Sequence record: MT682711.1
From: Escherichia phage vB_EcoM_FB
Length of the DNA: 64,000 nt
Direction: 5' to 3' (one strand)
In this document: one piece after another, positions 478 to 7,638 of the stretch
How positions within the stretch are numbered: the stretch's first letter is position 1
Layout: the number at the start of each line of letters is the position of its first letter
Notes under the pieces: generated by a model
Told to the model about the DNA's origin: nothing
The model's database searches: none
The model's input: only the letters and a program-made list of their open reading frames with translations
Program-made: the position numbers and the translations under genes

Positions 478-690
478 TTACTTTTTATTGAAAAAGTACA
501 TTTTACCTTTAGGAGATAAAGATACACGAAGCGCGTTACCGATACCAACTGAACACTTAACCAAGTCAGCAGATTTCAATTCACCAAATGCTTGACGAAG
601 GTCTGCATCACGGGTATTAACCATCAGACATTTAGCACCAGCTGCACGAACTTCGTTTAACATGTTGATTGCTTGATTAGAAAGTTTCAT
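478..690 (-). CDS. small hypothetical protein (about 70 aa)
   Basis: ORF-track frame 478..768 trimmed to the ATG with GGAG RBS lying downstream of the early promoter at 727-755. Confidence 0.5.
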   Translation of the reverse strand: MKLSNQAINMLNEVRAAGAKCLMVNTRDADLRQAFGELKSADLVKCSVGIGNALRVSLSPKGKMYFFNKK

Positions 691-726
691 TTTATTCTCC
701 ATTTCACTCTGTTGTTTTGATAGGTC

Positions 727-755
727 TATAGTATCACACCTATAGACCTTGTACA
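727..755 (-). promoter_or_regulatory. T4-type early promoter inside an inverted repeat
   Basis: minus strand reads GTGTAC-17bp-TACTAT; inverted repeat GGTCTATAG/CTATAGACC spans it; conserved leader GACCTATCAAAACA follows. Confidence 0.55.
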
Positions 756-768
756 CTGTTTTATGCAA

Positions 769-1728
769 TTATTTTTCGAAAGGACGAATTAAATGATGAT
801 TGTCTTGGAATCGCTTGATGTAATCATTTTCACCCAGAGATTTATACATATTCACTACGGCTTGATAGTTTTCCCACGCGTATTCGCGGAACCATCCGGA
901 AGTGATAGAGGTGCACACTTTCTCAAGAGCCATATAAAAACTTAACGACGGTGAAATATTGAAGTCGTTAGGAACCTGTGAACGTTCTAGGGCCAGGACA
1001 CAAGTTTCTTCGTATACGCCAGCCAGTTTAATAGCTTCAGGCAAAGCTTCAAACTTCTCACGAGAGGTCATGACTTCAGACCCATCTTTCATATAAAAGG
1101 TATATGCAGGGCGTCCAGCCAATGCCACAGCTTCATGGATAGAGTCGTGGTCCAGAGTATAAATTGTGTCATTAAAGAATGAAGATTTGTTAACGTCCAG
1201 TTTAGGATGAGAATAGCTCAACGTTTCTTTCTGACGTTGCAGCATGATTTCCTGGAGCTCTTCGTTCAGGGTTACACCTTTATTACGAAGGTATTTGATG
1301 TGGGACATAGTTTTCAAGAAGAACGGATTATTCTTCAGGAAACGATGAGAGGTTTTAATAGCCAGACAGATATCAGGAGTAGCCCAATAGAAACCTGTCA
1401 TACGATCTTTCTTAATATGATTTTCAGCATATTTCAGAAGACGATAACTTGAGGTGAAGTCTTCGTCTTGAAGCTCACCAGTGATTTCTCGTACGTTAGT
1501 CAAAGCGCGAACGATATAAGCTTCAAAATAGGTTTCTTTACCGTTGTGCATACATTTGAAAGCCTGGACATCAGGGTTGTCTACGTGTACATGGGCACCA
1601 AACATCTGTGCTTTAAAATTATTCCATGACCCCTGGTCGGCAATGAAATCCCAATCAGAATTTTCGATATACTTACTTTCAATAAGACCTGCGTTATGTA
1701 ATGCACGAGAACCGATAACTAGCATCAT
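769..1728 (-). CDS. hypothetical protein (319 aa), possible Pol-beta-superfamily nucleotidyltransferase
   Basis: ORF track; N-terminus VIGSRALHNAGLIESKYIENSDWDFIA fits a G-S...D-x-D nucleotidyltransferase signature by eye only. Confidence 0.6.
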   Translation of the reverse strand: MMLVIGSRALHNAGLIESKYIENSDWDFIADQGSWNNFKAQMFGAHVHVDNPDVQAFKCMHNGKETYFEAYIVRALTNVREITGELQDEDFTSSYRLLKYAENHIKKDRMTGFYWATPDICLAIKTSHRFLKNNPFFLKTMSHIKYLRNKGVTLNEELQEIMLQRQKETLSYSHPKLDVNKSSFFNDTIYTLDHDSIHEAVALAGRPAYTFYMKDGSEVMTSREKFEALPEAIKLAGVYEETCVLALERSQVPNDFNISPSLSFYMALEKVCTSITSGWFREYAWENYQAVVNMYKSLGENDYIKRFQDNHHLIRPFEK

Positions 1729-1749
1729 ATTATTTTCCTCAGAATTAAA

Positions 1750-1986
1750 TTAAATGTCCCAGCGGGCGCTATCATATTCATCCCATAGAGCTTCATGGGA
1801 GTTACAAACGATAGGAGCAATGACTCCGTTAATATCTTCGTTGTAAGGGCAGATAGTACAAAATGCATCTTCGAAACGAACACCGTAATCAGACTTCTTA
1901 TACGCAATGTCAAAAATCTTTTTAAACTTTTCACGAGTAATGGTTTTAGCAACAACTTCAGTACCAATACTTTCGTAATAAATCAT
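1750..1986 (-). CDS. hypothetical small protein (78 aa)
   Basis: ORF track; GAGGAG RBS upstream; preferred over overlapping low-complexity frame 1725..1967. Confidence 0.5.
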   Translation of the reverse strand: MIYYESIGTEVVAKTITREKFKKIFDIAYKKSDYGVRFEDAFCTICPYNEDINGVIAPIVCNSHEALWDEYDSARWDI

Positions 1987-1996
1987 GGTTATCTCC

Positions 1997-2197
1997 TCAG
2001 ATAGGACCGTAAAGGTATGTCCAACGTTTAACGAAAGAAACTACTTCTTCCAAGGTATCGAAGACCTCTGTAGTGCCTGGAACGCCATCGCCACTGATGG
2101 TTACTTTAATGCCATCTGAAACTTCCTGGAGGTTAATCTCCAGTTGGTTGGCTTTGGCTTCGTTCAGAACTTTGATTAATTCGTTTGCGATAGACAT
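1997..2197 (-). CDS. hypothetical small acidic protein (66 aa)
   Basis: ORF track; AGGAG RBS upstream. Confidence 0.55.
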   Translation of the reverse strand: MSIANELIKVLNEAKANQLEINLQEVSDGIKVTISGDGVPGTTEVFDTLEEVVSFVKRWTYLYGPI

Positions 2198-2261: not shown

Positions 2262-2591
2262 CTAGAGTTGTACATCACTTCTGCAATATTCTAAAAATAA
2301 TTTATTGTTGTCAACTGTATCCCAACGTCGCCAAGATGGATTCCAGACCAAAGCGTTGTCACCACAATCATTGAGCTTAAAATGGTCATAGTACATAGCT
2401 ATATGTCTAGTCTCGTCACCAGAGAACCCTAGTATAGGCTCGCCGTGGGTGTGATACATATGATGGTGCATTGAGAGGTCGCATTTATAAAACATTTCAC
2501 GTTTACCGCGAATGAACAAGAATGCTTGTCCGTTCATATAAAATTCTTTATCTGTTTTTAAAAGATATTTGAATACTGAATCTTTGTGCAT
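2262..2591 (-). CDS. hypothetical His-rich protein (109 aa)
   Basis: ORF track; GGAGG RBS; HHHMYHTHGE cluster. Confidence 0.55.
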   Translation of the reverse strand: MHKDSVFKYLLKTDKEFYMNGQAFLFIRGKREMFYKCDLSMHHHMYHTHGEPILGFSGDETRHIAMYYDHFKLNDCGDNALVWNPSWRRWDTVDNNKLFLEYCRSDVQL

Positions 2592-2628: not shown

Positions 2629-2853
2629 TTAACAGCTACTTGGATACCAGATTTTACCATCAGCTTGAGCAACGAAGGTACGACCAGCTTCTTCACCATA
2701 ACAAGAGCTATTCAGCCAATCTTCGAGACGAACTTCGCCGTCATAATCATCTAGCTCAACACCAAAATCCTGAGCAGAAGCCATATCTTTTACTTTCTTA
2801 TACAGTGCAGCCAGTTCAAGAGCAGCTTTTTCTAATTCATTAATATCAGACAT
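2629..2853 (-). CDS. small acidic protein, paralog 1 of a 4-member tandem family (74 aa)
   Basis: ORF-track frame 2629..3003 trimmed to the ATG at 2853 (Met51, AGGAAA RBS) because the upstream part overlaps the next paralog; C-terminus ...GKIWYPSSC. Confidence 0.6.
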   Translation of the reverse strand: MSDINELEKAALELAALYKKVKDMASAQDFGVELDDYDGEVRLEDWLNSSCYGEEAGRTFVAQADGKIWYPSSC

Positions 2854-2863
2854 TTTTATTTCC

Positions 2864-3076
2864 TTAGCAAGACATAGAAGAAGTAAACCAGAAACCATCG
2901 CCATCTGGGATACCGTAATCATCACGGACCCATTCGTAATCATCATATTCCGGATTCTTTGGAGAAATGTATTGTCCACGACCGGAAACATGGAACTCTT
3001 CACCTGTTTCGTCAGCCACGGACTGGCCTTTACGTACTAATTCGTGGATTTGTTTTTCAATTTCATCAATAGTCAT
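2864..3076 (-). CDS. small acidic protein, paralog 2 (70 aa)
   Basis: ORF track; RBS AAGGTAA; C-terminus GFWFTSSMSC. Confidence 0.65.
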   Translation of the reverse strand: MTIDEIEKQIHELVRKGQSVADETGEEFHVSGRGQYISPKNPEYDDYEWVRDDYGIPDGDGFWFTSSMSC

Positions 3077-3085
3077 TTTATTACC

Positions 3086-3367
3086 TTAACATTCAGAAGA
3101 AGAGGACACCCATCCACCTTTTTCAAGGTCTGTGGTGTAGTCGTGGGTGTTAACGATAGCGTATTGAGGCTCACCGTATTCTTCCCAGTGGGCAAGGTCA
3201 GCTTTCAAGGCGCCAGGAGAATAATAGTCACCGCCCATACCGCGAGCAGGGTATATATTAAAATGAGTCTCATATTTGTTTGCAATTTCCTCGGCGTGGC
3301 GAATAGCCTTATGGATGTCATTTACTGCGTTGGCCAGTTCTTTATTTTTACTGTAATCATTCATCAT
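3086..3367 (-). CDS. small acidic protein, paralog 3 (93 aa)
   Basis: ORF track; RBS AAGGAAA; C-terminus GGWVSSSSEC. Confidence 0.65.
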   Translation of the reverse strand: MMNDYSKNKELANAVNDIHKAIRHAEEIANKYETHFNIYPARGMGGDYYSPGALKADLAHWEEYGEPQYAIVNTHDYTTDLEKGGWVSSSSEC

Positions 3368-3376
3368 AACGTTTCC

Positions 3377-3667
3377 TTAGCACAATGCCGAAGAGGAGAC
3401 CCAAGCACCAACTGTAACGACGCCGTTTTCAACTTCACCGCCGTTGTTTTCAATTTCATCTTTAAACCACTGGGAGCATTCATAGCCGATAGGGTAATAT
3501 GTACGACCTGAACCATAATCGCCCGTACCGAATTGAATACCATACTTATCAGCAATTACTTCACATTCATGTTCGATGGTATCCACTTTATTCAGAAGAG
3601 CATAGATAGCTTTTTCTGCAGATTTCTCGTCGTTGTGTTCTGGGATTTCAATTTCAATTTTATTCAT
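3377..3667 (-). CDS. small acidic protein, paralog 4 (96 aa)
   Basis: ORF track; RBS AGGAAT; C-terminus GAWVSSSALC. Confidence 0.65.
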   Translation of the reverse strand: MNKIEIEIPEHNDEKSAEKAIYALLNKVDTIEHECEVIADKYGIQFGTGDYGSGRTYYPIGYECSQWFKDEIENNGGEVENGVVTVGAWVSSSALC

Positions 3668-6778: not shown

Positions 6779-6854
6779 TGGTCGAGGCAGTAGGGATCGA
6801 ACCTACGACCTAGGACTTAGAAGGTCCTTGCTCTTCCTTCTGAGCTATGCCCCG
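6779..6854 (-). tRNA. tRNA-Arg (anticodon TCT)
   Basis: hand-folded cloverleaf: acceptor CGGGGCA/TGCCTCG, D-stem GCTC/GAGC, anticodon stem AGGAC/GTCCT with loop CTTCTAA, T-arm GTAGG-TTCGATC-CCTAC, encoded CCA. Confidence 0.85.
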
Positions 6855-7567: not shown

Positions 7568-7638
7568 TGGCCCTGGGTGGAATCGAACCACCATCCAGCG
7601 ATTATGAGTCGCTCGCTTGACCGTCCAGCTACAGGGCC
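7568..7638 (-). tRNA. tRNA with CAT anticodon (Ile2-type as in T4, or Met)
   Basis: acceptor GGCCCTG/CAGGGCC perfect, anticodon stem AGCGA/TCGCT with loop CTCATAA, T-arm GGTGG-TTCGATT-CCACC; CCA not encoded. Confidence 0.8.

Follow-up and report, generated by a model that had tools for sequence, protein, structure and literature searches.

A predicted Pol-beta-fold nucleotidyltransferase of Escherichia phage vB_EcoM_FB is genetically coupled to small proteins with cysteine-terminated tails

The stretch of Escherichia phage vB_EcoM_FB analysed here (sequence record MT682711.1; 64,000 nucleotides (nt), hereafter the window) comes from a T4-like phage of the genus Dhakavirus. On its minus strand it carries a gene for a protein of 319 amino acids (aa), called the enzyme below, that has the motifs and the predicted fold of a nucleotidyltransferase of the DNA polymerase beta (Pol-beta) superfamily. 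The enzyme is genetically coupled to a family of small proteins with Cys-terminated tails, and this coupling is seen in both directions of look-up, from the enzyme to the small proteins and from the small proteins back to the enzyme. Because the pairing is conserved in most of the related loci examined, the enzyme and the Cys-tailed proteins probably work together. We give about an even chance to the reading that the enzyme is an active, phage-specific nucleotidyltransferase whose partners, and probably substrates, are these tails. A preliminary description of the window, made from its sequence, had recognised the nucleotidyltransferase identity, which stands; it had missed the conserved partner genes upstream.

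The gene and the elements of its catalytic domain are located as follows (the preliminary description had given no strand for the enzyme).

769..1728, minus strand: nucleotidyltransferase open reading frame (ORF), 319 aa, with ATG at 1728-1726 and TAA stop at 771-769
1736..1740, minus strand: Shine-Dalgarno sequence GAGGA, 7 nt 5' of the enzyme ATG, read from the sequence
1417..1728, minus strand: N-terminal catalytic domain, aa 1-104, a predicted minimal Pol-beta nucleotidyltransferase core
1708..1713, minus strand: motif I, G6-S7 (GGT TCT), where strand 1 passes into helix 1, in the context I5-G6-S7
1648..1656, minus strand: motif II, D25-W-D27 (GAT TGG GAT), opening strand 2, with F as the next residue; predicted metal-binding carboxylates
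1522..1524, minus strand: motif III, E69 (GAA) in F-E-A-Y-I, the predicted third carboxylate, in the middle of strand 64-73

A nucleotidyltransferase-like G-S…D-x-D signature had been proposed near the N-terminus, within VIGSRALHNAGLIESKYIENSDWDFIA (aa 4-30). This proposal is borne out: the ORF is real, the motif residues are conserved and the predicted fold agrees. Conservation was assessed in 73 relatives and in a further set of 146 more diverse cluster representatives, 35-54% identical to the query. D25, D27 and E69 are invariant in the 73 relatives, where G6 and S7 are each kept in 99%; in the 146 representatives G6 and D27 are conserved at 100% and S7 and D25 at 99%. The column equivalent to E69 in this second set holds 87% glutamate and 12% aspartate, often with a second glutamate two residues further on. 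Taken alone, the bare pattern G[GS]-x(10-25)-D-x-D carries little weight: it arises in 5% of shuffled versions of the enzyme (0.4% if it is required to lie near the N-terminus) and is present in 6 of the 51 window ORFs that have 150 aa or more. It is conservation and fold, therefore, that make the case. The motif HVHVDNPD (aa 46-53), which had been noted as a further acidic cluster, is present but its aspartates are poorly kept among the 73 relatives (D50 in 16%, D53 in 25%). The third acidic element is instead E69, which is invariant and sits on a beta strand further along.

The AlphaFold2 model of the enzyme (predicted local distance difference test, pLDDT, 92.8; predicted template modelling score, pTM, 0.87) gives a Pol-beta-like core with the acidic residues in catalytic positions. 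Its N-terminal domain comprises strands at residues 2-5, 26-31, 45-47, 54-61 and 64-73 and helices at 6-12, 32-41, 75-83 and 93-104. As judged from this model, the placement of G6-S7, D25-x-D27 and E69 is the canonical arrangement of the Pol-beta nucleotidyltransferase superfamily. At the level of the fold, the hG[GS] motif, the [DE]h[DE]h motif on strand 2, the third carboxylate in h[DE]h and a superposable alpha/beta core were all found. Among structural neighbours of the model, the highest score belongs to MenT1 (10.2), followed by ANT(2'')-Ia (8.8), TglT/MenT3 (8.5), MenT4 (7.9), TM1012 and JHP933 (7.7 each), 5uvd (7.6), LnuA (7.3) and the Megavirus poly(A) polymerase (6.7). Foldseek places 5uvd and MenT1 at the top ranks, with probability 1.0. 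By eye, the motif spacing of the enzyme is akin to that of ANT(2'')-Ia (GG, D44-x-D46, then D86-x-E88 about 40 residues on). By these model-based comparisons, the nearest structural relatives of the enzyme are the tRNA-modifying MenT toxins and the antibiotic-modifying enzymes.

Upstream of the enzyme, the window contains four ORFs of the family phrog_899, which are tandem paralogues.

3377..3667, minus strand: partner small protein 1, 96 aa, phrog_899, C-terminus …GAWVSSSALC
3086..3367, minus strand: partner small protein 2, 93 aa, phrog_899, C-terminus …GGWVSSSSEC, with a YGMGG-type middle motif
2864..3076, minus strand: partner small protein 3, 70 aa, phrog_899, C-terminus …GFWFTSSMSC
2629..2853, minus strand: partner small protein 4, 74 aa from an internal ATG, phrog_899, C-terminus …KIWYPSSC

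No Pfam family and no relative in the PDB was found for any of the four. Clustering of the ORFs around 80 related viral loci showed that one neighbour family, of small proteins of about 60-140 aa, is far ahead of the rest, and 125 of its 129 members lie on the same strand as the enzyme, at most 3 kb upstream of it. All members share the tail W-x-[S/A/P/T/G]-S-S-x(0-3)-C, in which the cysteine is always the last residue. In their common layout a helix at the N-terminus is followed by a YG-x-GG-TYY segment, then by a variable acidic stretch and last by the invariant tail. The median length is 85 aa and the median isoelectric point (pI) 4.4, as compared with a median pI of 6.1 for the enzyme family.

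The tail pattern marks the enzyme neighbourhood. In the window it occurs in only 4 of 703 reading frames, namely the four ORFs upstream of the enzyme. Across 97 enzyme loci, 245 ORFs with such tails were found on the enzyme strand and 5 on the opposite strand; 224 of the 245 end no more than 2 kb upstream of the enzyme. The strict pattern is present at 87 of the 97 loci, and at 89 when L034 and L089 are added after inspection by hand. Positive loci have one to five small acidic proteins, on the same strand and within 4 kb upstream. The module is found in Straboviridae, Phapecoctavirus (three copies), Otagovirus (four) and Acinetobacter Lazarusvirus (one). Menderavirus has two tail copies, located downstream of the enzyme. 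The module is also present in viral contigs of up to 370 kb, where the enzymes are only 41-55% identical. The reverse look-up started from seven small-protein homologues, looked up as exact proteins on long contigs: a DUF7275 gene, that is, one for the C-terminal domain of the enzyme, lies 50 bp to 0.9 kb downstream in six of them, and the seventh is cut by the contig end. The 202 distinct tail sequences use all six serine codons, both cysteine codons and all three stop codons. Selection therefore acts on the protein and not on a DNA element. As a separate observation, a tail-like WLNSSC also lies inside partner 4 (2629-2853) and points to an internal duplication.

The enzyme comprises two Pfam families, DUF7277 (aa 2-101; 94.3 bits, 7e-27) and DUF7275 (aa 120-305; 262.3 bits, 3e-78), each with a curated cut-off of 27, and it matches PHROG 2141 (phrog_2141) at 1e-149. 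Both domains are present in 143 of the 146 relatives. The fold and the chemistry are of a known kind; the DUF7277/DUF7275 family itself is uncharacterised. It is widespread in viruses, with the gene in 733 of 50,697 phage records and with 2,035 matching clusters at 90% identity and 1,233 matching representatives at 50% identity. Among 185,579 bacterial and archaeal species, each represented by one genome, only eight enzyme loci were found, all on metagenome-assembled contigs. The enzyme is encoded by a phage gene and not by a cellular toxin-antitoxin or defence gene. Seven of these eight contigs also carry the small-protein module.

For the enzyme, NCBIfam and PADLOC returned nothing, and searches of PDB sequences with the single sequence and with a profile gave only noise. 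A match to the RNase L KEN region was rejected as non-significant (E = 0.39). A few family members show weak or marginal Pfam matches to the nucleotidyltransferase families DUF6036 and DUF4269. The literature searched contains no mention of DUF7275, DUF7277, PF23940, PF23942, phrog_2141 or phrog_899, and nothing relevant was found in that on phage nucleotidyltransferases, AMPylation and anti-defence. Most records call the enzyme 'hypothetical' and some mis-annotate it. Public labels of the homologues conflict: that of Klebsiella phage vB_KpnM-VAC36 is a 'prohead assembly scaffold protein' and that of Acinetobacter phage Kimel a 'putative nucleotidyltransferase', while small-protein homologues in vB_EcoM_005 and vB_SalM_ABTNLsp5 are labelled 'tail completion protein'.

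The preliminary description had given the enzyme no T4 counterpart, and this is confirmed: tblastn and the family profile hidden Markov model (HMM) found nothing in the whole 168,903-bp T4 genome, which has no tail ORFs either. The annotated nucleotidyltransferase of T4, nrdC.11 (NC_000866 55435-56445), is an RlaP protein (PF10127, 4.6e-12) unrelated to the enzyme, and no homologue of it was found in the window.

The C-terminal lobe accounts for two thirds of the enzyme and contains two conserved clusters.

772..1416, minus strand: all-helical C-terminal domain (aa 105-319, DUF7275), more conserved than any other part of the enzyme
1342..1356, minus strand: K125-T-S-H128-R129, an invariant basic cluster closing the first helix that follows the core
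1135..1149, minus strand: H194-D195-S-I-H198 (CAC GAC TCT ATC CAT), an invariant H-D-x-x-H at a helix N-terminus

No convincing relative of this domain (~215 aa) was found among solved structures. Within the basic cluster K125 and H128 are conserved at 100% and R129 at 94%, and the cluster is a candidate for contact with the nucleoside triphosphate (NTP) or the acceptor. The H194-D195-S-I-H198 segment may form a second metal site. An HD-domain phosphohydrolase was considered for this lobe and rejected: it does not have the H…HD…D motif on an HD helical fold. In DUF1814 proteins the equivalent of the helix with the basic cluster carries a motif IV, which we take to follow the pattern K-L-x-A-x3-R-x3-[KR]-D-x2-D. 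A by-eye comparison with this pattern places K125-x-S-H-R129-x2-K-[ND] of the enzyme in the equivalent helix, with a different spacing. This C-terminal motif IV is said to be unique to DUF1814 proteins (PMC7450476).

On the favoured reading, a single enzyme would, during infection, service small effector proteins of several sorts. Four points here are inference: that the enzyme is catalytically active, that it physically contacts the small proteins, what its acceptor is and what biological role it has. The DUF7277 lobe would provide the minimal Pol-beta core, in which G6-S7 would position the NTP and D25, D27 and E69 would hold the catalytic Mg2+ ions, and the helical DUF7275 lobe would probably close over the active site and bind the acceptor. 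The likely chemistry is the transfer of a nucleoside monophosphate (NMP) from NTP onto a hydroxyl group. The conserved C-terminal lobe would recognise the invariant tail, which we consider the likeliest acceptor or partner, either by O-nucleotidylylation of one of its serines or by a maturation step that begins at it; the tail might also otherwise dock into the enzyme. Pol-beta-fold enzymes nucleotidylylate side-chain hydroxyls of proteins (the MNT of HEPN-MNT, GlnE/GlnD and DrrA), some of them on a genetically linked partner, and others of this fold, ANT(2'') and LnuA, act on small-molecule hydroxyls. The enzyme has no sequence match and no top-ranking structural match to MNT, GlnE/GlnD or DrrA. 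Moreover, these proteins modify tyrosine, whereas the conserved tail residues here are serine and the terminal cysteine. The enzyme family is near neutral, where an RNA binder would be expected to be basic, and its partners are strongly acidic, which is consistent with a protein acceptor.

A more elaborate proposal is a phage protein-maturation system in which the tail serine is activated by O-nucleotidylylation. The nucleotide would then either be kept as a handle or be eliminated to give dehydroalanine, which the terminal cysteine would attack to form a lanthionine-like C-terminal ring. One enzyme would in this way process a diversifying range of small acidic effectors for host takeover or counter-defence, and the system would be of a new class among the post-translational modification systems of virulent phages; we regard it as a long shot.

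Several observations weigh against the enzyme acting on the tails. Its best structural neighbour, MenT1, acts on tRNA, and the gene for MenT1 lies downstream of a 68-aa antitoxin gene. No tail ORF was detected near the enzyme in Gordonia phage Engineer or at loci L070, L071, L073, L084, L090 and L031; in some lineages the enzyme may therefore act without the tails. The distance from the tryptophan to the terminal cysteine is variable, an unusual trait in a site that an enzyme recognises strictly. Between the partners and the enzyme in the window lie three small, unrelated ORFs. More generally, gene linkage fits substrates, regulators, adaptors or co-transferred cargo alike.

The main rival is a MenT-like enzyme that would extend host tRNAs at their CCA ends, or other RNAs at their 3' ends, by nucleotide addition and so stop or re-programme translation, the small proteins being antitoxin-like inhibitors or specificity factors. 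We consider it unlikely, though by no means negligible. An activity on RNA 3' ends is still conceivable because MenT1 is a tRNA 3'-end nucleotidyltransferase. MenT toxins are reported to extend tRNA acceptor ends, and their genes lie downstream of small antitoxin genes, the antitoxin MenA1 having 68 aa (PMC7450476, PMC10435456). The conserved residues K125, R129, K139, R165, R249 and R281 of the C-terminal lobe could bind phosphates, and the enzyme does resemble the MenT/AbiEii group in structure (DUF1814; MenT1 8an4, MenT3 6j7n, MenT4 6y56). However, it gives no match to DUF1814/AbiEii (PF08843) even at E <= 10, and none of the 146 relatives gives one at E <= 1. MenT and AbiEii belong to cellular toxin-antitoxin loci, whereas the enzyme is confined to phages and its family is absent from cultured bacterial genomes, the usual home of such modules. 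The C-terminal lobe is much larger than that of MenT/AbiEii and unrelated to it, and the pI is neutral to acidic, unlike theirs. The partners are equally unlike any known MenA or AbiEi: they are acidic, present in several divergent copies and invariably end in the Cys-terminated tail. Family-wide linkage to tRNA genes, described below, is lacking. In addition, the structural scores of ANT(2'')-Ia and LnuA, enzymes whose acceptors are hydroxyls of small molecules, are nearly as high as those of the MenT toxins.

The other readings, namely a small-molecule enzyme, a CCA-adding enzyme and a signalling synthase, rank lower than this rival. Two tRNA genes of the window bear on the second of them.

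6779-6854, minus strand: tRNA-Arg(TCT), 3' CCA encoded
7568-7638, minus strand: tRNA-Met(CAT), ending at the discriminator A and followed by TATTTT; no encoded CCA

It is improbable that the enzyme is a small-molecule O-nucleotidyltransferase of the ANT(2'')/Lnu type, which would inactivate or build a metabolite such as a host antiviral molecule or an immune signal and would stand beside functionally unrelated small proteins. Profile comparison with hhalign finds no similarity between ANT(2'')-Ia and the enzyme (probability 0.2%). ANT(2'')-Ia and LnuA are the products of bacterial resistance genes, not phage genes, and have 160-180 aa with a small helical lobe, whereas the C-terminal lobe of the enzyme is far larger and without structural match; the near-obligate two-way linkage with the tail proteins would also be left unexplained. 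The preliminary description had entertained a tRNA-end function, pointing to a nearby tRNA without encoded CCA. This holds for tRNA-Met but not for tRNA-Arg, which encodes its own CCA. A CCA-adding or tRNA-end repair enzyme, acting on CCA-less phage tRNAs or on tRNAs damaged by host defence, would suit the position of the gene in T4-like relatives, which have a tRNA cluster a few kb upstream of it, and phages are known to carry RNA-repair nucleotidyltransferases, for example RlaP and CCA-adding enzymes (PMC7824862, PMC12776372). Yet neither the sequence nor the fold of the enzyme matches CCA-adding enzymes. There is no match to PolyA_pol/CCA-adding proteins (PF01743), and the architecture of class II CCA-adding enzymes and poly(A) polymerases, a PolyA_pol head with neck, body and tail, is not found. 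In a tRNA scan of 60 related loci, 50 of them divergent, only 5 of the 50 divergent loci have a tRNA within 10 kb of the enzyme, roughly what any gene picked at random in a large phage with tRNA genes would be expected to show. Since so few of the divergent loci are positive, tRNA proximity reflects lineage synteny and is not a property of the family. RlaP is, like the enzyme, a Pol-beta nucleotidyltransferase common in large phages, and lengthens RNA 3' ends by one or two NMPs (PMC12776372). It is linked to RNA ligase genes, whereas the enzyme family is linked to the tail proteins. Membership of the enzyme in RlaP was rejected: it has no PF10127 match, and neither RNA ligase nor polynucleotide kinase recurs among its neighbours in the family-wide neighbourhood analysis. 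A CCA-adding or repair role thus appears very improbable. The least probable reading, to which we give hardly any credence, is a CD-NTase-like synthase of a nucleotide second messenger or of a decoy signal; the Pol-beta superfamily fold is common to both, and nucleotide signalling is a known target of phage interference.

No described equivalent of a module consisting of this enzyme and the tail proteins was found in the literature searched. Through their pairing with the W-x-x-S-S-…-Cys tail proteins, two uncharacterised families become one module, and assignment to the MenT/ANT structural class gives the enzyme a testable chemistry. Among the phages with the family are T4-like, rV5-like, Otagovirus and jumbo phages that serve in therapy work. 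Modification of the tails, if it takes place, would make the module a new post-translational modification system of phages. Should tRNA ends be its target instead, the enzyme would be the first translation modifier of the MenT type carried by a phage.

In the window, the enzyme gene is part of the block that separates the tRNA genes from nudE/e, and its product shares 98% identity with a protein that is annotated as 'hypothetical protein' in Salmonella phage vB_SalD_ABTNLS3. Scans for promoters and terminators gave numbers of sites no higher than in shuffled sequence. The immediate neighbours of the gene are the following.

2262-2591, minus strand: small ORF phrog_9796, between the Cys-tailed partners and the enzyme
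1997-2197, minus strand: small ORF phrog_14244, between the Cys-tailed partners and the enzyme
1750-1986, minus strand: small ORF phrog_3723, between the Cys-tailed partners and the enzyme
478-768, minus strand: small ORF phrog_6001, directly 3' of the enzyme; 73 aa from an ATG at 699

The neighbourhood clustering did not find phrog_9796, phrog_14244 or phrog_3723 among the families that recur beside the enzyme across lineages. The phrog_6001 ORF (478-768) is given as the longest frame, from a TTG start, and abuts the enzyme stop codon; the closest relative has an ORF annotated at the matching position downstream of the enzyme.

Three further observations concern relatives of the module elsewhere. 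T4 tk.1 (NC_000866 60349-60549) matches the small-protein profile marginally (E = 7e-4) over LSFEISSEYGDAETYY and is without the W-S-S-C tail; possibly it is a small-protein relative that has degenerated in a phage without the enzyme. The homologue of Gordonia phage Engineer (MT498054; L007 3809-4600) has 263 aa and a shortened N-terminal lobe that keeps IGS…DFD…E. No Cys-tailed ORF was seen within 4 kb of it, and a tRNA cluster begins 1.2 kb downstream. Finally, several metagenomic phage contigs have genes for a ClpB-like AAA+ ATPase (L096 386-2383, L097 1-1796) and a YqeY-domain protein (L096 3358-3771, L097 2671-3114, L105 501-926) a few kb upstream of the module, an arrangement that may reflect lineage synteny.

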